From: an uncultured Acidobacteriota bacterium
GTDB taxonomy: Bacteria; Acidobacteriota; Terriglobia; UBA7540
DNA length: 64,000 nucleotides
Assembly (NCBI GenBank): GCA_963804995.1
Contig: CAWDSK010000005.1
Location: 1,184,001 to 1,248,000, forward strand
Direction: 5' to 3'
Position numbers and translations under genes: made by a program. How positions within the stretch are numbered: position 1 is the first letter of the stretch; the number at the start of each line of letters is the position of its first letter. Shown here piece by piece: positions 3,101 through 64,000 of the stretch. Under the pieces are notes generated by a model. It did not search any database. It was given only the letters and a program-made list of their open reading frames with translations, and was not told the origin of the DNA.

Positions 3101-5169
3101 CTCTTTCCCCCCTCAAGGACGCTGCCGGTCTGGTTACCGGGGTATCGACGATTGTTCGCGACATCACGGAGCAGAAGCGAGCGGCGGCCGAACTCCAGCG
3201 TGCCAAGGAATCCGCCGAAGCCACCAGCCGCGCCAAGAGCGAATTTGTGGCCAACATGAGCCACGAGATCCGGACCCCCATGAACGGCATCATCGGCATG
3301 ACGGATTTGGCGCTTGATACGGCATTGACTTCCGAACAACGCGAGTACCTCACCATGGTCCGGGATTCCGCCGATTCCTTGCTGACCATCATCAACGACA
3401 TCCTTGATTTTTCCAAGATTGAAGCCGGCAAGCTGGGTCTGGACCCGGCGGAATTCAATCTCCAGGATGTTCTCACCAACACCTTGAGGTCGCTGGCGGT
3501 GCGGGCAAGCCAGAAGGGGCTGGAATTAGCATGGGGCGTAAAGGCCGGAGTTCCGGAGCGCGTCATTGGGGATGCTGGGCGCCTTCGCCAGGTGATCGTG
3601 AACCTGGTGGGGAACGCCATTAAATTCACCGAGCACGGTGAGGTGGTGGTAGGTGTCGAAGTCGAATCCCAGCAAGCCCAAAGTGTCGTACTGCACTTTA
3701 CGGTCCGCGATACGGGGATCGGCATAGCTCCAGAAGAACAAAAGCAGATCTTTGAGGCCTTTACGCAAGCCGACAATTCGATGAGCCGGAAGTACGGAGG
3801 GACAGGCCTCGGCCTGACAATCTCTTCGCGGTTGGTTGAGATGATGGACGGCAACATCTGGCTGGAGAGCGCTTTAGGTGAGGGAAGCACCTTCCACTTC
3901 ACCGCCCGGTTGGGCCAAGCCAAGGCCGCGGCGGAGGAATCTTCTCCCAAGAACATCATCAGCCTGCAGGACCTTCCCGTCCTTGTCGTGGACGATAACG
4001 CCACCAACCGGAAGATTCTGGAGGCGATGTTAACCCACTGGTTGATGCGGCCGGAGATGGCTTCGAGCGGGGAGGAAGGCCTCGCAGCACTGGAACGGGC
4101 CGCTGCCGCCGGGTCACCTTTCCCGCTGGTTCTTCTCGACGCTCAAATGCCGGAGATGGACGGCTTTGCTTTGGCGGAGAGGATCAAGCAAAACCCCCAA
4201 CTTGCAGGGGCAACCATCATGATGCTGACCTCCGCCGGACAGCGCGGTGACACTATTCGTTGCCGGGAGCTGGGAATCGGCGTGTATCTCATCAAGCCGA
4301 TCCGGCAGTCAGAATTGCTCGAGGCAATCGTGGAAGCCATGGGGAAATCCTTCCATCAGGATCGCGCCACGGTCATTACCCGCCATAGCCTTCGCGAAAA
4401 CCGCCGGAAGTTCCACATTCTTCTCGCTGAGGACAATGAGGTCAACCGGCTCCTCGCGGTACGCCTTCTCGAGAAGCTCGGCCACGTCGTGACGGTCACT
4501 TCCAACGGCAGCGAGGCGTTGGCCATGCTTAAAAAGGCTCGATTTGACCTGGTATTGATGGATGTTCAAATGCCCAAGATGAATGGTTTCCAGACCACTG
4601 CTGCAATCCGAAAAGAAGAGGAATCCACCGGGGAACATCTCCCCATCATCGCGATGACGGCGCATGCGATGGAGGGTGATCGCGAGCGCTGCCTCGCCGC
4701 CGGCATGGATGGCTACGTCGCCAAACCCATACAGGTTGAAAGCCTGGTCAACGCCATTGAGAACGTCGGTCAGGCTCCCGAAGTCGCCAAAGTGGCAAAA
4801 CCGGCAACGCCCCGGCAGCAGGACCCGATCGATACCGCGTCAGCCCTGGCGCGGGTGGAAGGGGACGTCGAGCTTCTAATGGAGATGGTTGCCCTGTTCC
4901 TCGAGGAACTTCCCGATTTGCTGACAACCCTTCGAGAGGCGGTCACGGCGGGGGATGCCGGCGCAATCGAACGCGCCGCACACAAGCTCAAGGGATCGGT
5001 GGGCAATTTCGCAGCTCGGCCGGCCTTCGAGGCAGCTTTGAAATTGGAAGTCCTGGGCAGGGAGCGCAACCTGTCCGAAGCTGAGCCCGCCTATGGCGAA
5101 CTGGAAAAGGAAATCCAACGGCTCAGATCGGCGATGGCCATGTTGAGCGAATTGGAGGTACGCCCATGA
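149..5169 (+). CDS. Hybrid sensor histidine kinase: OB-fold-like periplasmic repeats, TM, 4 PAS, HisKA, HATPase, REC, REC, Hpt; two +1 frameshifts (~1891, ~2636)
   Basis: ORFs 149-2014, 1926-2705 and 2494-5169 join into one protein. H-box FVANMSHEIRTPMNGIIG, G-boxes DTGIGI and GGTGLGL, two receivers (LLDAQMP, LMDVQMP), Hpt AAHKLKGS. Confidence 0.9.
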
Positions 5170-49824: not shown

Positions 49825-50317
49825 GTAGGGTCGGGGTCTGGCGCGGTGGCTCCGAAAGGCCTTCGGAGCCCCGTTTCCAGCCCCCGCCACATCACACGTA
49901 GCGTGCGGATTTCCCGCACTACGCGTTCCTGCACGCTTCACGACAAGGGTTATGGGGCCGATCGGGTCGGCGCGGCTGCCCAGGAGGGCGACTGATAGAC
50001 CACGCGGTACTCGTGGAAGAGCCCGAGCGGTCCATACAGCCACTCCTTACGCCACCGCTTCCATCCGAAACCTGGGCGTTGTCTGGCTCTCGCCAAGTGG
50101 CACCGAATCTTCTTCTCTACCCAGTCGCGGATATACGAGAAGCACCGGCTGGAGTGGCCCACCGCAAAGTAATTCACCCAGCCGCGCAGGATGGGATTGA
50201 TCGCCTCGATCAACCCCTTCACGGGCTGAGAGCGATAGCTTCGGAAAACCAGCTTGAGCTTGCGCAGCAGCGCCGTTCGCTTCTTGACCCGCGGCTTATG
50301 CAGCGGCATCCATCGTC
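49825..50317 (-). mobile_element. 3' remnant of a group II intron (maturase end, domain V, domain VI)
   Basis: Minus strand GGAACGCGTAGTGCGGGAAATCCGCACGCTACGTGTGATG (DV-like), followed by a DVI hairpin ending CCCGACCCTAC. Confidence 0.85.
49950..50309 (-). pseudogene. C-terminal maturase (domain X) fragment of a group II intron reverse transcriptase
   Basis: LIEAINPILRGWVNYF...GFGWKRW; RT domains absent. Confidence 0.85.
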
Positions 50318-51731
50318 CCCGTAGTATCCAAATACTGGATCCTTTTGAAAGCGCAGCTGGATAGTGAATCCGCTGACAGCGGGTGCGGGGGTGTCATGAC
50401 ACTTTGCCGCCGTGTTACGCTGACACGATGCGCCCGACGTTGGATTCCTTTCGACTGCTGCTGATTTTCCTCGCGGGCTGGCTGAACCCACAGCAGCAAG
50501 ACGTCATCGACTACCTCCAGGAAGAGAACCGAGTTCTTCGGGAACAACTCGGCGATCGACGGCTGCGCCTGAACGACGACCAGCGCCGGCGTTTGGCAGT
50601 CAAGGCCAAGAAACTGGGCCGCAGGGTGCTGCACGAACTGGCCACCCTCGTTACGCCGGAGACGCTCTTGGCTTGGCGCCGCAAGCTCATCGCCCGGAAA
50701 TACGATGGCAGCCAGCAGCGTGGCCCTGGTCGTCCGCGCACCCCAAACGAGATCCAACAGTTGGTGGTCCGCATGGCCACCGAGAACCGCGCTGGGGGCT
50801 ACCGGAGAATCCAGGGGGCGTTGGCCAACTTGGGGCACGAGGTCGCCCGCGGCACCATCTCCAACATTCTCAAGGAGCACGGTCTGGAGCCGGCGCCCGA
50901 GCGTAATCGGAAGACCACCTGGAAGGAGTTTCTGGCCCGGCATCGGGAGGTGATTGTGGCGGCGGACTTTTTCAGGATCGAGGCTTGGACGCGCCGGGGC
51001 TTGACGAGGTTCCTGGGGCTCTTCCTCATCGACTTGTCGAGTCGGCGGGTGGAGATCGCGGGAGTGGGGCGGCAGGCGAATGGACTTTGGATGAGTCAAG
51101 TTGCACGCAACCTCAGTGATGCTACGGACGGCTTCCTGGTCGGCAAACGATACCTGATCCATGACCGCGACCCGCTGTTCACGGCAGAGTTTCTGGAGAC
51201 CCTGGAGAGCAGTGGCGTGAAATCCGTGAAACTGCCGCCACGGGCACCCAATCTGAAGGCCCACGCCGAGCGATTCGTCAGAACCATCAAAGAGTCCTGC
51301 TTGAAACGGCTGATCCTGTTCGGGGAAGGCTCCTTGCGGAAGGCCATCCACGATTTCGTTATGCCTTATCATCACGAGCGCAACCACCAAGGGCTGGACA
51401 ACCAGTTGATCATTAAGGAAGAGTCTTACGTCAGTAGGGCGGGAGCGATCCAGCGCCGTCAGCGGTTGGGTGAAATGCTGAATTACTACTATCGCCAAGC
51501 GGCCTGAGGGAAGACGATCGAACTGTGAGGGGATGGCCACCGGCGAGTGTGTCGATCCTCACCGTAGCGCGGTGCACGAGCGCCGCCTGGGCTGATTACA
51601 GCGACCAAATCCATGCAGTCGCGTGGTCACCCTGCAGGCCCCCATAACAAAAACCATCCACCAACTCCCGAGAAGATCGCGTTCCTGGGCAAACCAACTG
51701 TCCCTCGTTTGAGTTCTTGGACCTTGCGCGG
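50318..51731 (+). mobile_element. IS-like element with an rve/DDE integrase and imperfect terminal IRs
   Basis: The left end CCCGTAGTATCCAAATACT is shared with the second copy at 59696. The imperfect complement AGTTCTTGGACCTTGCG lies at ~51712-51728. Confidence 0.75.
50428..51507 (+). CDS. rve integrase-core (DDE) transposase, IS481/IS3-like
   Basis: [44 protein letters not shown]. Confidence 0.88.
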
Positions 51732-53824: not shown

Positions 53825-54186
53825 GTTGAGCCGATTTTGGGCCCTCCTCCGCATGAGCCTCGGATTTTCCTCCCTCGGACCCTGACGCCGGAATCTTGCC
53901 CTGCTGACTTCGTAGCTTGGATGGGCTCGGCTTCGAGAAGGTGGGAGATTTGCGCGCGGACATGGCTGCACCCCGCAGTAACACTTGGTTATTATATCAA
54001 CATACACTATGAAAATCAAGAGGATTCTACCAGCGTTAGAGGCTACAAAATGTCGCTGCCGGAAAGCCAGTGTAGCGGGGACCTGTTTTGGTCCGCGCCT
54101 TTTCACCATGTCATGTAAACTGCGCCGATATGTCAGTCGATCGGTTGCCGTGAATACTGGGAGGCAAATGTCGCAACGAGGCTTGG

Positions 54187-54216
54187 GGCGCATACATGTA
54201 CTGCGATGTATGCGCC
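54187..54216. repeat. Perfect 11-bp inverted repeat with 8-nt spacer (GGCGCATACAT-N8-ATGTATGCGCC)
   Basis: Seen directly; sits at the breakpoint of the helicase fragment. Confidence 0.7.
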
Positions 54217-54221
54217 ACCCG

Positions 54222-54600
54222 CGAGTCGGCGATATAGAAATGCCTCGCTGGCGCTTCGCGCTCGATTGGCGCCCTCGGCATTCGGAGACGGCATTATGGC
54301 AACGTTAACAAACAGGTTTGCCAGGGGAGAATCTACCCCATCGCGCACCAAGCGACGCACGCTCAAGGCGTATTGGCTCTTCCACTCGGGATCGATGGGG
54401 AGAGGCACGTCCGCAGGCCAGCCGGGCACGGCGCTGCCCGGAAGCTGGATCCTGTAGCCAATCGCCTCATAGCCGCGACAACGGCGATCGAACATCCGCG
54501 CCAGCATCGGCACGTTGAGATCGGCGTAGTCGTAGACGCGCACTTCGCGCTTGCCGTCGTACAGGCGATGCAGCCTGCCCACGTATTGCGCGATGGTCCC
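54222..54600 (-). pseudogene. Middle fragment (SF2 helicase motif VI onward) of the TOTE-type primase-helicase gene
   Basis: GTIAQYVGRLHRLYDGKREVRVYDYAD...ARSASEAFLYRRL. Confidence 0.75.
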
Positions 54601-54773: not shown

Positions 54774-56609
54774 ATGGTAAGGAAGGAAGACTGCCTACGA
54801 GCTGTTAAGGCCTTCCGGGCAAAGCAGGGCATCGAGGCGAGTGACGACAATGTAATCGCCTCGATTCACCTCATGAATGCCCATGGTCTCGACATTGCCG
54901 CCGCTCTGGACCAGAGCTCGAGAGCTGGTGACGACCATGGAATCGACGCTTGGCATTACGATGATGCGAATCAGGAGCTCTTCATCTACCAAAGCAAGTT
55001 AAGCGAGAGCAAAAGCTTGGTGCTGCGAGGTTTGGACGACCTCGACAGAGCCCGACAGTGGCTTGAGCCTGTTGTCATCGATGGGGCGGTGGAAAAGGTC
55101 CCCAGCGATAACCACTGCCTATTCACCCTTTACACCCACTTGGCCGGCGTTCGGGCGAATCTGAGGCGGATTCGCTTCGCCCTTTTATCCCTTTTCGACA
55201 GGAACGAGCTTGAGGACACTGACGACTACGGCGAGTTCGAAAAAGCAATCATCGGCTCTAGGTTAAACGAGCATGTGAGAAGCAACCTGAGGGGGAAACT
55301 CGTCATTGACGCCATGCAATACAACCTTGAGCAAGGCGTTCCAGCCAAGGTAAAGGTTTATCCGATCTCTGTCATCCCAAATGCACGCTTATGCCTTAGA
55401 AGGACCGCTCACCTGGATTTGGCGTATATCAGTCTCTACGATCTCGTCCAGCTATACCGGCAAAGGGGGGACGTTTTGTTTGACAAAAACGTGAGGCTTT
55501 CCTTGATCGGCAGTAAGGAGGCTCGCCAGCGTCTAGTCCACCCTATGGAGGAAACCCTCGACCTCATCACCTCCGGGAAGCTCAATCCGAACATTTTCCC
55601 TTTTTATCATGTAGGTGTAACGATTGCCGCACCGGCTTCCGCACCCGAAGATTCGGACGTGCTCGGGTTAGAAGCGCCGAGCATCATCAACGGTTGTCAA
55701 ACGCTGGCAATCGCCAACGAATACTTGAAGCGGCTAGAGAGAGCCCAAAGCGATGGCGAGAGGATGCGACTTTTCAGAGACATAAAGGTCATTGCTAAAG
55801 TGGTTGTCGGAACATCTAATGAAGAGCTCAAGGAAATCACCAACTCGAATAACAGACAGAACCCGATCGAGAACTGGCAGCTTTTCTCAAATGAACCCCT
55901 ACATATCGAGATCGAGGCAGCCCTGAAGGAGATAGGGGTTTTCTACGAGCGCCAAAGAGGGAAGTTCGACGCAGTCATGAAGATCGCGGACAACGCCCAA
56001 CACTACTACGCGACGAACGGCACTTTCATTAAGGTCGTCGATCTTGGCCAAGTCGTTGCATTGTCCAGGGAGAATCTCCAATGGGCAGCGAAGCCCTCTG
56101 AGATTTTCCTCAATAAAGACAACCACGACAAAATATTTGAACGCTCAATCCCGAAGTATGGCCGTGACATTATTTTCGTTTCAAACCTCTTCAAGGCAAT
56201 GAAGAGGGCGCTTGATAATTACTTAAGCATGCCTGCTTACGCCGCCGACGGGGCCGCGCAGAACATCTTCAAGAAACAGATCGTCCGAATGCATGTCTTC
56301 GCTCTCGCCCTGCTACATTTCTATCAGAGCGATAGGCGTCGGGCTGTCCGGACGGACTTCTCCCACCGGCTGAATAAGATCGCGAGCCCCAACCTGACCA
56401 CGGAGATAGAGACCTTCTACCGACAGGTCATAGCCAAGGTCAAGAATTGGTACTTGACCGAATCCAATGGTCTCACACAAGAGGTATCCAATAGAAAGCT
56501 AGATGTTTTTTTCCAGCATTTGGCCGTTGAACTTGGTGTAGACGCCATCGAGGGCGCGAGACCGTTCTCTTCAACAAGTATAAAGTGGGCCGAGCACCAA
56601 GAGGCATAG
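54774..56609 (+). CDS. AIPR-family (abortive infection phage resistance) protein
   Basis: DHGIDAW, QSK, LFDKNVR, IINGCQT, ITNSNNRQNPI, FYERQRG; SD GGGAGG; lower GC than the flanks. Confidence 0.8.
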   Translation: MVRKEDCLRAVKAFRAKQGIEASDDNVIASIHLMNAHGLDIAAALDQSSRAGDDHGIDAWHYDDANQELFIYQSKLSESKSLVLRGLDDLDRARQWLEPVVIDGAVEKVPSDNHCLFTLYTHLAGVRANLRRIRFALLSLFDRNELEDTDDYGEFEKAIIGSRLNEHVRSNLRGKLVIDAMQYNLEQGVPAKVKVYPISVIPNARLCLRRTAHLDLAYISLYDLVQLYRQRGDVLFDKNVRLSLIGSKEARQRLVHPMEETLDLITSGKLNPNIFPFYHVGVTIAAPASAPEDSDVLGLEAPSIINGCQTLAIANEYLKRLERAQSDGERMRLFRDIKVIAKVVVGTSNEELKEITNSNNRQNPIENWQLFSNEPLHIEIEAALKEIGVFYERQRGKFDAVMKIADNAQHYYATNGTFIKVVDLGQVVALSRENLQWAAKPSEIFLNKDNHDKIFERSIPKYGRDIIFVSNLFKAMKRALDNYLSMPAYAADGAAQNIFKKQIVRMHVFALALLHFYQSDRRRAVRTDFSHRLNKIASPNLTTEIETFYRQVIAKVKNWYLTESNGLTQEVSNRKLDVFFQHLAVELGVDAIEGARPFSSTSIKWAEHQEA

Positions 56610-56639
56610 CAGAAGCCCCTCTGTGCAATGCGCGTGTTG

Positions 56640-57305
56640 TCATGCCTCATTGCGCGGCGGGGCCATAAGGTTGCCGAAGCCGCCTTGCGGAAGAGTATCT
56701 TGATTGGGAAAAAAACGGTCGTAGGAATCTAGCGCAATGTCGGGACGGCGTTCCATAGTTTCCGTCAGAATGTGCGCCCCCATCTTGCGCGCCAAGTTAG
56801 CAGGAACGGCTTCGTTGAAGAAGAACCAAATAGGCCCGCCTTTCCCTGACCGCGAACGCTCCAAGGCTACCGGCAAGTTCATCTGGCGGCAAGTTTCCAA
56901 GAACGTAGCGGCATCGTCTTGCCACGCCGCTTTGTCGAAATCGGCCGCCAGGAAGAAACAGGTTTCATCCAGAAGCATTGGATAGAGGCCCATAACGAAA
57001 TCACGGCCCTGGTTGTCTTGACCTCTCAGGTGCCACCGAATCGCATCGTCAGTTACGGGAAGAAAACGCTGGTGGGGGCATTCGGAACATTTGATTCTGG
57101 GCTTTTCGCAGATTCCCTGAACCCATTCATTGCCACACACCGGCGAATAGCCGGCCCTGCCCGTCTTGCGGCTTTCGAAACGGCGCGGGTAAACATCTTC
57201 GCGCCCACGAAACAGGGAACGGAAGAGGGCGATCTTGGCCTCGGCGGGGGAACGTTGATTCACGCCAATGTGCGCCAAGTCAGGAAGCCGGACAGGTGTA
57301 TCCAC
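56640..57305 (-). pseudogene. N-terminal archaeo-eukaryotic-primase-like (TOTE) domain of a split primase-helicase gene
   Basis: KIALFRSLFRGREDVYP, FLAADFDK, LERSRSGKG, SYDRFFPNQD, GFGNL, then a premature end. Confidence 0.8.
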
Positions 57306-57738: not shown

Positions 57739-58560
57739 TCACCAAGAATTCAGTTCGTGCTTCCGATCCAATACGGACGCAGGCTTTTCCGAGACAAACG
57801 GGTCGATCCGGTCGGCCTGCTTTGTCGCCCACTCGATCCATGCCTTATAATGCGGCTGCTTCTCGGCAGACAAGGAACGGGTTTTCTCGGCATAAGCTGA
57901 AATGAATCGACGCAGCCGTTCCGCACGCTCCCACAGATCGACCCACTTGTTGAATTGCTCCAGCTTCTTCTCCTCTTCTTCGATGTCTTTCCGGAGATGC
58001 GCCCTCTCCTGCGCACGTTTTTGCTGTTCGGCCTCGCGCTTTTTGCGCTCCTCCTCTTGGCGCCGTTGCGCGACAGCGGTTCGCATCAGTCCGGCCACGA
58101 AATCCGCGACGTGGTTCTCGATCCGCTTGACTTTTGCGTCACTCCATCTTGCCCGTTGTTCGTAATGTACCCATGTCTCCGAGTGAATGACCAGCGCGAG
58201 CTTTCCCCCGGGTTCATGTGTCACGATTTCGTCGTAATCCCATCGATCGGTCGGATTGGGCACTCGCGGCTTCTGTGTAACGACTCTCCGGATTGGCTCC
58301 TCGATCCCGAAGGACACGTGCTCACCATCGATCAAGGCCGTTGTGCGGCCTTGCTCCGAGATTTCAACACTGGCGCCCTGCCGTTCCAGCACAGCCAAGA
58401 CCTGGGCCATTAGGAGCAAGGCACGTTCCAGCGTTCCCTCGCTCACCTTCACGTCAAGACCACTTGCCTCTCGCGGCAGGAGGATGCCGTGTTCATCCTT
58501 GCGGCTGCGACTTCGCAAGAGGCTTGCGGTGTGCCGAATCAGCGGATTGGGAATCGCAAG
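57739..58560 (-). pseudogene. Conserved-looking hypothetical protein with C-terminal coiled coil; 5' end lost
   Basis: 259-aa ORF with coding-like composition, abutting the truncated AbiEii. Confidence 0.55.
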
Positions 58561-58922
58561 CCGTGTGCGGGCGCTCCCGTCGCTGCTTCTGTTGGTTCAC
58601 TGACTTGGAACTCAAACCAGTCGTCAAAGACAAGGGAAGCCACCCCTCGGAGATGGGCGGTAGTCTCTTCACGGGTCCAGCGGTTGGTTGCCGAAACGTC
58701 GATATCTTTGGTCGTTCGGGCCCGAGTGCCGAGCCGCAGTTGGAGAGCAAATCCGCCCTTGACGATCCATGCTTCAGGCTCCTTCTTTGCCAGCCGAGCC
58801 AAGAAGCGGTCGAACGCGACTATCTTCCGCAGGCGCGTCAATGGCTGTCCGCCTTCGAGGCTCTGTTGCCGAAACCGTTCTTCCAAGGCACGACGGAATG
58901 CCGCTGATGTTTTGTATTTCAC
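58539..58922 (-). pseudogene. abiEii: AbiEii/AbiGii nucleotidyltransferase toxin, C-terminally truncated
   Basis: FRRALEER, FDRFLARL, VKGGFAL, RTTKDID; only 127 aa. Confidence 0.8.
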
Positions 58923-59524
58923 GAATGATCTTTTGTCGATTTCGAATAAGACTTGATTAGACGGGCGGCCCGGCCTCCCCGATGCCTCACTTCAGCCGCG
59001 AGCGCTTGGCTCGTGGTGAGTCCGCGTTCGAGCGCTTCCCGTATGGCGCGGGCAACATGATCTTCAGAAAGCCCTGCCTTGGCCACATCGGCTATAGTGC
59101 GTGGGACTGAAGTAACCTGCAGCCCTTCGCGCTTCACGAGATTAGCAGGCGACAGGCGATTCGTGTGCAGGCGAAATCCCTTTCGTCTGCGCGAGGCGGT
59201 ACGTGGAACGGTGACATGAACTTCCCCAGGGAGGACGTCAGACAGGTCGTACAGGGCAAGGGCGCTTTCGTGCGAGATGGCAGACTTCGGGCCACACTTC
59301 AGCCAAGCCACAAATAGATCCTCGAATTGGGAAGAAGGAAATTGGGCCAGGCGATATACTCCATGCGCGACCCTTTGGAAGCGTCCATTTTTCGAATAAT
59401 CGCTCAGACGCTCCCCCGAGAAGCCCACCCTGGCCGCCTGACGAGCGGTGAAGTATCCTGCCTGCTGCTCCGCGAGATGATAGAGAGCATCGTGATCGGG
59501 CGTTTTCTTGGCCACGGTTGTCAT
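58919..59524 (-). CDS. abiEi: Type IV TA antitoxin AbiEi
   Basis: AEQQAGYFTARQA, RVAHGVYRL, ISHESAL, VTSVPRTIAD; ATGA-coupled to the toxin. Confidence 0.88.
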   Translation of the reverse strand: MTTVAKKTPDHDALYHLAEQQAGYFTARQAARVGFSGERLSDYSKNGRFQRVAHGVYRLAQFPSSQFEDLFVAWLKCGPKSAISHESALALYDLSDVLPGEVHVTVPRTASRRRKGFRLHTNRLSPANLVKREGLQVTSVPRTIADVAKAGLSEDHVARAIREALERGLTTSQALAAEVRHRGGRAARLIKSYSKSTKDHS

Positions 59525-59593
59525 TGTGTGCAAAACCTTCGGAAATACCTAAGTTTCTGCACACATTATGCCCGAATAAAGCATGCTCGTCCA
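59525..59593 (-). promoter_or_regulatory. abiE promoter (TGGACG-17-CATAAT) with inverted-repeat operator
   Basis: TGTGTGCAAAACCTT (59525-59539) and AAGTTTCTGCACACA (59551-59565) are 13/15 complementary, between the -10 box and the ATG. Confidence 0.65.
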
Positions 59594-59695
59594 GCCTGTT
59601 TAACGCCGCGTTTTCAGGTTTCAGAGTAGATTTATCTGGATCCTCGTTACTTCCTCTGCTGTCGTGGCCGCTGCCGCGCTTCTGGCCAGCTACAT

Positions 59696-60178
59696 CCCGT
59701 AGTATCCAAATACTGGATCCTTTTGAAAGCGCAGATGGATAGTGAATCCGCTGACAGCGGGTGCGGGGGTGTCATGACACTTTGCCGCCGTGTTACGCTG
59801 ACACGATGCGCCCGACGTTGGATTCCTTTCGACTGCTGCTGATTTCCCTCGCGGGCTGGCTGAACCCCCAGCAGCAAGACGTCATCGACTACCTCCAGGA
59901 AGAGAACCGAGTTCTTCGGGAACAACTCGGCGATCGATGGCTGCGCCTGAACGACGACCAGCGCCGGCGTTTGGCAGTCAAGGCCAAGAAACTGGGCCGC
60001 AGGGTGCTGCACGAACTGGCCACCCTCGTTACGCCGGAGACGCTCTTGGCTTGGTGCCGCAAGCTCATCGCCCGGAAATACGATGGCAGCCAGCAGCGTG
60101 GCCCTGGTCGTCCGCGCACCCCAAACGAGATCCAACAGTTGGTGGTCCGCATGGCCACCGAGAACCGCGCTGGGGGCT
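59696..60178 (+). mobile_element. Truncated second copy (left 483 bp) of the IS at 50318
   Basis: Near-identical to 50318-50800, with about five substitutions by eye. Confidence 0.92.
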
Positions 60179-60994
60179 TATGTCGCGACACCCATCGAGG
60201 TCGCAGGAGCTTATACGATTTTCGCCGATCGCGGTGAGTACGTCGCACCCCGGTGCATTGTGGCCGTCGCCGACGCCCACGGCCGCACCGTTTGGAACAA
60301 TCCTGTCAGCGCCCGCCGGGTGCTTGATTCGCGCGTCAGTTATTTGATGGTGAGTTTGCTCGAAAGCGTCATCAACAACGGCACTGGGGCAGGCGTGAGG
60401 GCCCGTGGCTTCAACCTTCCTGCCGCAGGGAAGACCGGCACTTCACATGACGGCTGGTTTGCCGGATTCACCTCGAACCTCCTCGCCGTGGTTTGGGTTG
60501 GCTACGACGACGACCGCGACCTGAAAATGACCGGCGCGCAGTCCGCTCTGCCCGTCTGGGCCGAATTCATGAAGCGGACGACTGAATTATCCCTTTACAA
60601 GACCTCACAACCCTTCAATAAGCCTGAAGGGATAGAGATGGCCGAGATTGACAATCTCACCAACCTTGTAGCGCTCGCCGATCCAATCTTGACGCACAGC
60701 GAGGTGTTCATTGCGGGTACGGAGCCGTTCCCACCCGTTCAGCAAGAACCAGCGGACATAGCTCTGGGGCCGCTGGGCTACCCCTCGACTACACTGGCGA
60801 GGAAGGAATCACCGCAGCGGGCGGACGGGATTGTCCTGATTTCCGACGCGCAGGGGCATAAGGTTTACGTCAATGGCGGAGACCTGCTCTCCCCCCGGCC
60901 CGAGCATCGGCTCGCGCCCGCTTGCCCCCACCCCGCCCTCGGTGGCTTGATAGGAATCGCAGGTGCGACCGACGCTCAAGCTTGTCCAAATTAG
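60167..60994 (+). pseudogene. C-terminal transpeptidase fragment of a class A penicillin-binding protein
   Basis: [49 protein letters not shown]. Confidence 0.82.
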
Positions 60995-61174: not shown

Positions 61175-62596
61175 TCATCGTGCTCTTAAGAGCGCGCTCG
61201 AATCCGGCCGAGTACCAGTGACTTCAATGCCGTAGGTATCGCCAAGCGCGATTAGTTCCGGAAACTGACATTCGGGGTGGCAGGGTTTGAACTCTGGAGG
61301 TTCCATGTGGCTCCCGACGAAGTGGTAGAGTTGCGCCCCTGGGTTGGACAGATTCAATGGGGCCAGGGTCAGCGCAAGCATTTGAAGCATCTGCATGCTG
61401 GCGCAGGACATCGAAAAAGCAAAAACGTTCTCTCGGACTTTTAAGGGATGGTCGTTAAGCAAGCCTTCAATGTAAGTGGGGTCGTCGAGGAACCCCTCGC
61501 GTTCGGCTTGAACTAGCCCGGGATCGTACTGCCGGTGGCATTGCAAGCAACGGCGTCCGATTGTCGCTGTGTGCGCTTTCCAGTCGGCTGCGACCAGCTT
61601 CCCGAAACGATTGGTTCTGACGCCGATTCCGCCGTCAATGACCGGTATCAGGTGAGCGTAGGCGATGAGGTTCAAGACGTAGCGGCCCCATGGTCGATCC
61701 ACACACGAAAAGATAACATCACTATCGAGCGCAGCGCGAAAGCCATCTTCCTCATAGACGGCGGCTGCAACGGGATCAGGGCGGAAGCGCTTCGTCGTTG
61801 CCCGCGCCGATAGATGCTCGGTCTCAACGTCGACCTTGAGGCGGCCAATGTCCTTTCGGGTGGCATAAACCAGCCGGTCCAGGTTATGCCGTTTGACATG
61901 GTCGAAGTCAATCAAGATTATGTTTTCGAAGCCGGTGCGAGCTAACGCCTCAGCGACCATACCGCCGACACTTCCGGCACCCACGATCGCGATTCGGAGC
62001 CGGACAAGATCAGTGTGTGCCTGCTCACCCCATGCAGATACGGTTCGGACCTGCTCCTCACTGGATTCTGGGGGCCTTGCCAACCTATCCATGTAGGTAA
62101 CCATAAGGCGCTCGCCGACTATACGCACAGTGGCGCAGTGCCGCCGCAGGTAGGTCCGAGGGGCGCTCCGCTCCCAGAACCTGGCGCTCCAGGCGCCATC
62201 GCCGGCCAAGGTTAAACCTACAAGCGGAAGCCGCGTGGCGCCGAAGACCGCAGGGGCGAGACTCTGCTCGGTTGTGATGTCATCGAAGCTCATCCCCTGC
62301 CACTTGATTCCGTTGGGATGGCTGTGCATGAGTGCAAGCCCACCAGCTTCAGACGTGGCCTCAGCTAGTGCCCGCTGAAAGAAGACCGTCTCAAGACTGG
62401 CATTGCCGTGAATGTTGCGATCTCCGTTGCCTGGAAGAATGAGACGTTTGACCAGCGCGGTTTTCCGCTCCCGTCCCCTGCTCGGGCACCATATGGCGAA
62501 GCAGAGGTCTTCCTGACCGTCCCAGCGTAGGAGGTGGTCGCGAGCGACTTGATTGATCGCCGTTGTCATTGCGGAACTGTGTGCGGCACGGCTCAT
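61175..62596 (-). CDS. JAB/JAMM metallopeptidase fused to a ThiF/E1 ubiquitin-activating-like enzyme
   Basis: QEDLCFA...LMHSHP...MSFDD (JAMM); GAGSVG, DFDHVKRHNLDRL, CVDRPWGR, CLQC and CHPEC. The ATG overlaps the upstream stop. Confidence 0.85.
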   Translation of the reverse strand: MSRAAHSSAMTTAINQVARDHLLRWDGQEDLCFAIWCPSRGRERKTALVKRLILPGNGDRNIHGNASLETVFFQRALAEATSEAGGLALMHSHPNGIKWQGMSFDDITTEQSLAPAVFGATRLPLVGLTLAGDGAWSARFWERSAPRTYLRRHCATVRIVGERLMVTYMDRLARPPESSEEQVRTVSAWGEQAHTDLVRLRIAIVGAGSVGGMVAEALARTGFENIILIDFDHVKRHNLDRLVYATRKDIGRLKVDVETEHLSARATTKRFRPDPVAAAVYEEDGFRAALDSDVIFSCVDRPWGRYVLNLIAYAHLIPVIDGGIGVRTNRFGKLVAADWKAHTATIGRRCLQCHRQYDPGLVQAEREGFLDDPTYIEGLLNDHPLKVRENVFAFSMSCASMQMLQMLALTLAPLNLSNPGAQLYHFVGSHMEPPEFKPCHPECQFPELIALGDTYGIEVTGTRPDSSALLRAR

Positions 62597-63414
62597 TGGG
62601 TTTCCCATAAGGAATAGATGTGGCTCATATAGGCAACCGTCGTCTTCTTGCTGGTTGCCCAGTCTGGGTATGGGCGCGACCAGTACTCCCAATCTCCGCC
62701 CGTACCCTGCTGGAAGGCTCCTGACTGCGATTCGTGGACGCCTCCTAGCGGATGGCCAACGTCGGCGGCGGGGTGAGCAGGATAGATACGTGGGGAGACG
62801 TGGGGACCGGTCGGTGTAGTCATGGGAAAATCGGACGGCACGACGAAGCCTAGTCGCACCGAGCGGCCGCTGAAGCGACCGCTCGGAACGGGGTAATCAA
62901 GAACGACGTGGTTGGGTTTACCCTGCAGAAGCTTCGGGTTATATCCCATTGCGCGTAGCCCGTCCAAAAAGACCTCGACGCCAGTGAGGATCGGACCGTA
63001 AGAAACGGGTTTCGGCCCCGTGGAGACGATCTGAAAGTTCATGCAGTTGTGCATTTTGATTGGCACGCCGCCTTTACCCTGGTAACTCTCGGTATGGCCG
63101 GCAATGATCTGAACGAGATAGTGGTCTGCAGGGTCTTTCTTGCCGAACTCCACAATGATTTGGTTCGGGGTAAGCTCGTGTTTTGTTGTCTCGCAGGGCT
63201 CACCGTCAACTTCGAAATGAATTTCCTGGTGGTGGTGCTCCTCTGCTTCGTGAATCTCTTGCGCTGCCGCCTCAATTTCACGTGCGGCGATTTTTTCAGC
63301 TCCTTGCGCGGCTGTCAGATCTGCTTCCGCCTGCTGTAAGTGCGCCTCTGCCATCTGGAGCTCAGTGCGTGTATCCCGGCCCTCATTCCTGCTAACATCT
63401 TGATTTTCTGGCAT
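62593..63414 (-). CDS. Coiled coil + ubiquitin-like (multi-ubiquitin-type) domain + prokaryotic E2-like domain fusion
   Basis: SD AAGGAG; Ala/Glu helix; IHFEVDGEP..LTPNQII..HYLV..PIKMHNCMNF (Ubl-like); PSDFPMTTP and WEYWSRP (E2-like). Confidence 0.72.
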   Translation of the reverse strand: MPENQDVSRNEGRDTRTELQMAEAHLQQAEADLTAAQGAEKIAAREIEAAAQEIHEAEEHHHQEIHFEVDGEPCETTKHELTPNQIIVEFGKKDPADHYLVQIIAGHTESYQGKGGVPIKMHNCMNFQIVSTGPKPVSYGPILTGVEVFLDGLRAMGYNPKLLQGKPNHVVLDYPVPSGRFSGRSVRLGFVVPSDFPMTTPTGPHVSPRIYPAHPAADVGHPLGGVHESQSGAFQQGTGGDWEYWSRPYPDWATSKKTTVAYMSHIYSLWETQ

Positions 63415-63479: not shown

Positions 63480-63501
63480 TTTCGGCCACCGGTGGCCGAA
63501 A
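63480..63501. promoter_or_regulatory. Perfect 22-bp palindrome TTTCGGCCACCGGTGGCCGAAA in the divergent intergenic region
   Basis: Self-complementary over 22 nt. Confidence 0.6.
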
Positions 63502-63556: not shown

Positions 63557-64000
63557 ATGGCGGCAGGCACTTCACCTCGGAACCCGGAGACGATCGATTG
63601 GCGGCTGCTGATGAAGCGACTGCATGGAGCTGCCGTTCGCCTCGTCGGCAGCAGCAACCGTTTGATCGATTGCGGGGGATCCTCCGCGAAGGACCTCGTT
63701 TCCGAGGTGCTTGAAGAGTTCTTTAACTCTCCGAATGGATGCGGCTGGGATGGCACCGAGGCTGGGTTGACCCGATTGCTGTGCAAAATGATTGAATACA
63801 GGTTTATCGACCACGTACGCCGTGACGGCAAGGTCGCGATCGACTCCGAAACCCCACTTGCGACCGCGATATGTCATGATTTAGGGCCCGACGAGCAAGC
63901 AGCCAGCGATCAACTGCGCAGTAGAATGTTCGATGCTGTGAAAGGTCACCCGAAGGAAGCCGAGTTACGGGACTTCATCCAAGCCGCGGCGATGATTAGC
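63557..64000 (+). CDS. ECF/sigma70 region-2-like protein, partial (runs off the window)
   Basis: Stop-free 148 codons not listed in the ORF track: DWRLLMKRLHGAA...AKDLVSEVLEEF...LTRLLCKMIEYRFIDHVRR. Confidence 0.6.
   Translation, partial: MAAGTSPRNPETIDWRLLMKRLHGAAVRLVGSSNRLIDCGGSSAKDLVSEVLEEFFNSPNGCGWDGTEAGLTRLLCKMIEYRFIDHVRRDGKVAIDSETPLATAICHDLGPDEQAASDQLRSRMFDAVKGHPKEAELRDFIQAAAMIS

Follow-up and report, generated by a model that had tools for sequence, protein, structure and literature searches.

Can two overlapping genes make up a complete, cysteine-free machine for ubiquitin-like conjugation, and if so, where does its protein tag end and which residues carry it? The question is raised by an operon near the right-hand end of a 64,000-nt stretch of DNA (contig CAWDSK010000005.1, assembly GCA_963804995.1; hereafter the window, meaning the whole stretch analysed) from an uncultured Acidobacteriota bacterium. 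Its nearest known counterparts are the Bub operons, which represent a cysteine-free form of ubiquitin-like conjugation. We consider it likely that the operon belongs to a minimal branch of Bub without the BubE protein, in which the JAB peptidase would free a tag ending in Ser138, E1 Tyr375 and E2 Ser246 would relay the tag as oxyesters, and a protein would be the final target. The elements of the operon on which this proposal draws are as follows (aa, amino acids).

62593..63414, minus strand: BubAB-like polyprotein gene (open reading frame 1, ORF1; 273 aa), assigned from an intact reading frame and a fold prediction; its parts are a coiled-coil-like long helix (about residues 11–59), a β-grasp tag (about 63–138) and an E2/UBC fold (about 142–273).
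61175..62596, minus strand: BubCD-like JAB peptidase–E1 fusion gene (ORF2; 473 aa), assigned from sequence and fold matches.
63001..63003, minus strand: codon of Ser138, the probable last residue of the mature tag (cut Ser138|Tyr139), from conservation and the stops of split relatives.
62995..62997, minus strand: codon of Gly140, a linker position that is not conserved.
62671..62679, minus strand: E2 motif Ser246-Arg247-Pro248, corresponding to Ser-Arg-His in Type I Bub; the oxyester is predicted to form on Ser246.
62800..62802, minus strand: His205 of the E2, a candidate substitute base; the BubB residue aligned with it, Y302, lies three positions C-terminal to D299.
62279..62512, minus strand: JAB/JAMM catalytic residues E29, H91, H93, S103 and D106.
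61472..61474, minus strand: Tyr375 in the E1 crossover loop, the predicted oxyester nucleophile and counterpart of BubCD Y370.

Both genes are intact and share an ATGA overlap between the ORF1 stop and the ORF2 start codon, in keeping with the initial annotation, which had described two translationally coupled reading frames from the letters alone. The conserved final Gln of ORF1 may be a simple by-product of this overlap. ORF2 finds its best PDB sequence match in BubCD (E 7.5e-24, residues 10–329) and its best fold match in Citrobacter BubCD (E 3.6e-32, TMq 0.71–0.75; model pLDDT 85), with Cap2 as the first protein other than BubCD in the fold search (E 2.7e-14). ThiF is the sole Pfam family over its cut-off in ORF2 (E 6e-29), and the PADLOC E1-E2 profiles match only the nucleotide-binding part. 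The JAB residues correspond to E28, H91, H93 and D104 of BubCD, and four Zn cysteines lie at positions 350, 353, 439 and 443; the JAMM motif and the ThiF/E1 domain with its zinc motif that had been read from the translation are thus both present.

ORF1 was placed by fold comparison alone because sequence searches of the PDB, with the single protein and with a profile, gave no meaningful match. Its AlphaFold2 model, based on a 59-row alignment, averages pLDDT 91; confidence is low at the N-terminal end and in the linker (136–139). Residues 63–132 superimpose on a Methylobacterium multi-ubiquitin protein (Z 10.6, root-mean-square deviation (rmsd) 1.5, 67 residues aligned) and residues 145–273 on Citrobacter BubB (9EAV_D; Z 10.1, rmsd 3.6, 114 aligned). 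In the VIA-align comparison with 48,161 chains, bacterial multi-ubiquitin domains rank first for the former part (Z 10.6 and 10.1), and BubB ranks above the eukaryotic E2s for the latter. ESM Atlas likewise puts ORF1 next to Multi_ubiq/Prok-E2_E clusters (0.95). Pfam Prok-E2_E stays under its cut-off (E 0.017), Foldseek returned zero matches at E ≤ 0.001, and ORF1 matches nothing in PADLOC or NCBIfam. The middle domain is therefore a β-grasp and the C-terminal domain a UBC fold in the model, the two features on which the earlier proposal of a ubiquitin-like tag fused to an E2 depended. Its suggestion of kinship to Bub also holds, through the BubCD matches of ORF2 and the BubB match of the E2. 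The compact pairing of a tag-E2 and a JAB-E1 fusion, which it had ranked as the window's best candidate for an under-described system, is indeed there; as a novelty it falls away, since the same pairing already defines Type I Bub (10.1101/2024.11.21.623953).

Type I Bub (6E.1) is described as BubAB plus BubCD plus BubE (Ye et al., 10.1101/2024.11.21.623953), with Citrobacter sp. RHBSTW-00271 as its representative (PDB 9EA4, 9EAE, 9EAV). In that system the JAB domain is reported to cut BubAB after G229, and the E1 to use Y370 (10.1101/2024.11.21.623953). The operon studied here shares both fusions, the replacement of Cys by Tyr in the crossover loop and by Ser in the E2, control of the CapH/CapP type, and varied tag N-termini (a coiled coil here, extra β-grasp domains in relatives); coiled-coil tags are already known (Gong et al., 10.1101/2024.11.21.623966). 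It differs in three respects: it has no BubE, its tag ends in Ser or Ala rather than Gly across the family, and its E2 reads Ser-Arg-Pro without the equivalents of H335 and D299 (Pro248 and Thr202).

To weigh these differences we used relatives found by scanning GTDB genomes with an E1 alignment, since no part of the ORF1 alignment was conserved well enough to scan for loci. The scan gave 87 confirmed relatives and 79 loci from many phyla, and a metagenome set comprises the best 80 of 306 loci; among viral contigs of IMG/VR, 24 pattern matches were seen and none was confirmed. E1 residues were counted in 68 full-length genes, 11 of the 79 being partial or frameshifted and excluded. The five JAB residues are each kept in 68 of 68, as are Arg241, Lys254, the four Zn cysteines and Tyr375, and the crossover loop is free of Cys in 65 of 69 sequences; that of ORF2 has none.

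The E2 domain, recovered from 73 of the 79 genome loci, combines one constant residue with one that has changed throughout. Ser246 is present in all 73 and aligns to the Ser of the WSRH motif in BubB (S333/H335; hhalign probability 95). Pro occupies the +2 position in 68 of them, and all 74 metagenome E2s read WSRP. In the Citrobacter E2, S333 is accompanied by an invariant H335 and D299, and the S333A/H335A double mutant is reported to abolish conjugation (10.1101/2024.11.21.623953). The column of D299 is mostly Ser, Gly, His or Thr in the relatives, and His205, which we propose as a stand-in for the missing His, is kept in 64 of the 73 E2s. ORF1 has Cys only at positions 74 and 124, both within the tag; since the E2 domain has none, the chemistry would run via Tyr375 and Ser246. 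These changes also speak for a different view, namely that the tag is matured and activated and the E2 is a dead scaffold, with a direct transfer of the tag, either from the adenylate or from Tyr375, onto a target or onto proteins encoded by the operon itself. None of the 73 E2s has His at +2, Asp is not among the five commonest residues at the D299 position, and E2s of family 6e without Cys have been read as inactive (Iyer et al. 2006, PMC1779556). We nevertheless judge a dead E2 unlikely, as Ser246 persists in every E2 even where its neighbours have changed (WSRP, WSKN, FSLP, FSRP), and Type II BubBD is reported to work with Ser and without His at +2 (10.1101/2024.11.21.623953, PMC11601596).

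BubE was sought with two profiles. PF20137 (BubE, DUF6527) gave nothing over its cut-off in the source genome, which is 92% complete (best 14 bits against 23.6). A BubE profile built from 14 BubE-like proteins had no match below E 0.1 in the 79 genome loci or in 22 kb around the operon (L091 has one of 28 residues, E 0.11); in the 80 metagenome loci, where the threshold was E 0.01, it had none either, leaving none of 159 loci with BubE. Downstream sequence of at least 600 bases was available in 77 of the 79 genome loci and 60 of the 80 metagenome loci. As a control, we fetched 15 loci with a BubE-flanked BubCD: the profile matches 13 of them (one being a seed), the E2 reads WSRH in 14 of 15, the tags are Gly-ended by eye and the JAB motif is present in 14 of 14.

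Could the operon nonetheless be a Type I Bub whose third component, BubE or a distant analogue, is encoded at another genomic site? The preprint states that all Bub operons have bubE (10.1101/2024.11.21.623953), PF20137 occurs outside the operon loci in 12 of 50 host genomes tested, and the source genome is incomplete. We regard this as improbable. The remaining 38 host genomes lack PF20137, the best score in the source genome is well below the cut-off, and among the relatives no small gene recurs 3′ of the E1 gene; those that do recur there are large, namely a caspase-helicase (4 loci) and an AAA ATPase (6 loci). The statement that all Bub operons have bubE follows from the make-up of the catalogue, which was compiled from operons containing DUF6527 (Table S1, PMC11601596), and Citrobacter BubA, BubB and BubCD are reported to conjugate without BubE (10.1101/2024.11.21.623953). 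Two layouts near this subject deserve mention in their own right. L115 and L116 (G406 and G433) have a JAB-E1 gene, then a 500-aa gene and one for DUF6527, and no WSR-type E2 was found in their vicinity; they represent another Bub-like layout. The caspase-domain/DEAD-box helicase fusion (about 1,020 aa) stands beside the operon in five Acidobacteriota loci, downstream in L023, L025, L038 and L053 and upstream in L015.

A quick, unrooted JAB-E1 tree (LG+G4) of 31 chosen family rows (ORF2 and 30 of the 68 full-length relatives), three plasmid relatives and 17 controls has one long branch (SH-aLRT 100) that parts 34 family rows from the 17 controls. The three plasmid relatives, actinobacterial loci with Ala-ended tags, group with the family, and E1 identity to the Gly-ended control set is 24–31%. 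Judged by these sequences, the family is a distinct and widespread branch across many phyla, a branch of its own beside Bub. We do not file it as a member of Type I Bub, although it would work like one, because the Gly end, the E2 His and Asp, and BubE are all lacking.

The end of the tag is marked by the relatives in which the tag gene stands alone. In 32 of the 79 genome loci (five tag calls were corrected by eye) the tag gene stops exactly at a PxPV-Ser/Ala motif, with 24 ending in Ser, seven in Ala, one in Glu and none in Gly. Ten others carry a tail of 2–5 residues, 29 are fused to the E2, and eight have no tag in view (seven contig ends and one broken locus). The 39 extended forms have Ser (37) or Ala (2) at the motif end. 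In the metagenome set, the tag is in view at 66 of 80 loci, Ser occupies the motif end in all 66, and a stop follows it directly in 14. Ser138 is moreover invariant in the 59 aligned ORF1 proteins, where Gly140 is variable. Because split relatives stop right after PxPV-Ser/Ala, and never after Gly, Ser138 is most likely the last residue of the mature tag, which the JAB domain would have to release in the present locus by cutting Ser138|Tyr139. The initial annotation was right that the polyprotein would need cutting by JAB and had the Gly codon at its correct coordinates, but its proposed cut after GPKPVSYG lies two residues beyond the conserved end.

A cut after Gly140, which would make the tag an ordinary Gly-ended modifier, has some appeal: PVSYG looks like the tails of sulfur carriers, which end in Gly, Citrobacter BubAB is cut after a Gly (G229; 10.1101/2024.11.21.623953), and Gly is the commonest residue at +2. 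Yet it occupies that position in only 12 of the 39 extended forms of the genome loci and 19 of 52 of the metagenome loci, and none of the 46 tags that stop at the motif in the two sets ends in Gly, so we give this reading very little credence. The derivation of the linker Asp-Gly from the start of the E2 was also considered and rejected, as it fits only L067 and L069.

Fused and split tags are intermingled in the family. An E1 tree from an incomplete search, lacking the canonical L108 and two rows of Type II, was used for the fused/split pattern only. In it, all 23 fused rows fall within one 35-row branch (SH-aLRT 99) that also holds split loci, and several split loci among the fused ones have a stop codon in place of the first linker codon. 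The tag gene appears to have been fused and re-split, with the stop after Ser each time, the direction of change depending on a root that the tree does not establish. The sole Glu-ended tag (L088:5211-5651) accompanies a frameshifted E2 and may belong to a decayed or misassembled copy. The Ala-ended tags define a sub-branch (L072-L074, L078, L081, L083, L087-L090 and L136-L138) with His in the E2 where BubB has D299 (10 of 73), E2 motifs such as FSLP, FSRP and HSRD, and several members with two β-grasp domains; in L087, a 313-aa SEC-C motif gene (4150-5088, plus strand) lies upstream of the tag gene.

Is a Ser-ended tag chemically plausible? The E. coli Type II BubA is listed as ending in Ser (Table S2, PMC11601596), its conjugate in vitro is reported to need ATP, the E1 Tyr and the E2 Ser (10.1101/2024.11.21.623953), and all six Type II-like tags that we fetched from beside BubE genes end in Ser. 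Because Type II tags already end this way, Ser-ended chemistry is credible and its novelty lower, and we reject the view of the Ser end as unprecedented. The phrase "C-terminal serine" does not occur in the main text of the preprint (10.1101/2024.11.21.623953). With Type II Bub (6E.2; BubA, BubBD and BubE of E. coli ZDHYS365) the operon shares the Ser-ended tag, the Tyr and Ser relay and the lack of His at +2. Type II, in contrast, has an E2-E1 fusion, typically no JAB, a BubE and a tag made mature, whereas here the E2 is attached to the tag, the E1 is fused to JAB, BubE is absent and the Ser end needs cutting. A JAB domain that cuts after Ser is undescribed in the literature searched, Type II typically being without JAB. 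That search, which did not extend to the 2026 journal version in Nat Struct Mol Biol and so may miss what is said there, found no description of a BubE-less or Ser-cutting Bub branch, nor of the altered E2 site.

That adenylation of the tag by the E1 serves sulfur transfer or chemistry on small molecules, of the ThiF/MoeB kind, with no protein tagged, is suggested by ThiF being its only Pfam family and by its public name ("ThiF family adenylyltransferase"), and is scarcely credible given an NCBIfam ThiF/MoeB score of 62 against a cut-off of 275, a tag with no Gly-Gly end, the lack of a sulfur-donor gene among the scanned ORFs of the window, a UBC fold that is always coupled, and a fold search in which BubCD leads MoeB by 19 orders of magnitude.

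Taken together as a reaction sequence, the BubE-less proposal would run as follows. First, JAB likely cleaves the polyprotein at the Ser138|Tyr139 bond to separate tag and E2, by analogy to the polyprotein cleavage in Citrobacter; the after-Ser site itself we infer from the relatives. The E1 then likely adenylates the Ser138 carboxyl, as in the Ser-ended conjugation of the E. coli Bub, and the tag is likely passed from Tyr375 to E2 Ser246 as oxyesters, as the Citrobacter and E. coli systems both suggest. With His205 perhaps standing in for the missing E2 His, the E2 would attach the tag to a target protein, probably in response to a signal of stress or infection that may induce the operon through the neighbouring sigma/partner/peptidase module. 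The JAB domain might also remove the tag from its targets. Such removal or recycling is suggested because JAB is intact in all 28 full-length loci whose tag needs no cutting.

Several points weigh against this account. The missing His and D299, read with the S333A/H335A result, could mean that the E2 is weak or dead, and His205 is itself missing in nine of the 73 E2s. The loci are not independent: L079 and L086 are identical, L024 and L035 nearly so, and the 66 metagenome junctions comprise 40 distinct strings. The 11 partial or frameshifted E1 genes also count on this side, as does the fact that loci were fetched by the patterns CVDRPWGR and GLAL[ML]HSHP, by which the conservation of H91 and H93 is partly selected for. 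As to function, Bub operons are described as not shown to protect against phage (PMC13373217), and the preprint reports no phage protection for Bub (10.1101/2024.11.21.623953). Two further observations speak against the notion that JAB has replaced BubE: the controls L134 and L135 combine a Gly-ready tag and an intact JAB motif with BubE, and the Citrobacter JAB is reported to have left conjugates standing (10.1101/2024.11.21.623953). That JAB takes over from BubE is accordingly possible, not likely. We entertain only tentatively the fuller picture of a third, minimal Bub type, a cysteine-free two-gene machine in which the JAMM peptidase would read Ser or Ala both to free and to remove the tag, the E2 would use a Ser246/Arg247/His205 set, a protease would gate a sigma switch, and the tag would go to phage or damage-related proteins.

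Other conjugation systems are more distant. With Type I/II Bil (BilABCD), the operon shares a tag, E2, JAB and E1 in one operon and a β-grasp of the multi-ubiquitin type, but Bil encodes its four proteins in separate genes, its E1 carries a catalytic Cys domain and its E2 a Cys, in contrast to the two fusions and the Cys-free E2 and crossover loop seen here. The ThiF-type E1, E2 fold and JAB peptidase recur in Type II CBASS (Cap2/Cap3), in which, unlike here, the E2 is fused to the E1 and a CD-NTase and effector are present. None of the 12 ORFs scanned encodes a CD-NTase, an effector or a sulfur-transfer protein, as had been stated for the genes adjacent to the operon, and no CBASS gene (CD-NTase, effector) was found by eye on to position 76000.

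The other side of the operon offers a candidate controller, whose elements are as follows.

63480..63501: a perfect palindrome of 22 bases, located in the 142 bases that separate the operon from the divergent regulator; a possible operator or promoter element.
63557..64000, continuing to 64159, plus strand: divergent sigma-70/ECF-like gene, 200 aa (TIGR02937 E 1.6e-4, under its cut-off).
Past the window, to 65415: a 146-aa gene and an ImmA/IrrE (M78, CapP-type) peptidase gene, 286 aa (M78 profile E 5e-40).

These three genes overlap one another and face away from the operon, and we consider the module its likely controller; Pfam has no name for the sigma-like or the 146-aa protein. An ImmA/IrrE-type (M78) peptidase gene lies within 4 kb upstream in 43 of the 60 loci with enough sequence, usually with an XRE-type helix-turn-helix (HTH) gene, as in CapH/CapP. 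L018 and L019 share the sigma module (69–79% identity) and the intergenic sequence, in which the palindrome is kept as an imperfect inverted repeat. L014, in contrast, has the closest E1 (87%) and yet an HTH-type regulator and a different intergenic region without the repeat, so that regulators seem to have been swapped between operons. The palindrome sequence is unique in the genome, which holds 53 perfect palindromes of that length, and a scan of the region for sigma-70 promoters gave nothing usable above shuffled sequence. In the plasmid relative L136, a sigma/hypothetical/ImmA trio precedes the operon in the same direction. Further out, at 65561-67901 on the minus strand, lie a GNAT-ASCH fusion gene and a 412-aa gene that looks dCTP deaminase-like by eye; the GNAT-ASCH gene also occurs in L014, whose copy matches ASCH and a GNAT family in Pfam. 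A gene resembling a type I restriction-modification methylase begins at 75280, after insertion sequence (IS) elements.

Downstream of the operon, the nearest gene is a transpeptidase (penicillin-binding protein) fragment on the opposite strand, 180 bases from the E1 gene, followed by an IS remnant. The start of an IS-like transposase at 59761-60237 (region 59647-60994), which abuts the fragment, repeats 50383-51507 (region 50296-51540). Next come an intact AbiEi antitoxin gene (58539-59533, minus strand; PADLOC E 3e-76) and an AbiEii that ends at 127 aa, less than half of its profile, and at 54774-57305 an AIPR/AbiU-like gene (611 aa, plus strand) converges on a 221-aa piece of a TOTE primase (minus strand). 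A short piece resembling a helicase C-terminus (54133-54582, minus strand) may be part of a larger, interrupted gene. The claim that the neighbours are defence genes is only partly borne out: AbiEi and the AIPR/AbiU-like gene fit it, AbiEii and the primase are fragments, and the immediate downstream neighbours do not fit. With its Abi, AIPR/AbiU-like and TOTE genes and IS remnants, this side of the operon is a decayed defence island, which hints at a defence role; between defence and a general stress role we see about even odds. A search of sequencing runs listed four DNA runs with 6–7% of words and no RNA run, and was not used as evidence.

What would such a branch mean for Bub? It lies outside the published catalogue of DUF6527-containing operons and, as a check of the earlier proposal against PADLOC showed, has no fitting model there or in NCBIfam. 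In its journal version, the Bub paper reportedly assigns BubE a role in conjugation. A branch that is natural, widespread and free of BubE provides a ready comparison for the purpose of BubE and for the smallest working system. Since split and fused relatives mark the likely tag end, constructs can be defined (tag 1–138, E2 from 139). If the proposal is true, the family would have a JAMM peptidase that cuts after Ser, where the one examined to date in Bub cuts after Gly, and an E2 able to make a serine ester with no adjacent His.

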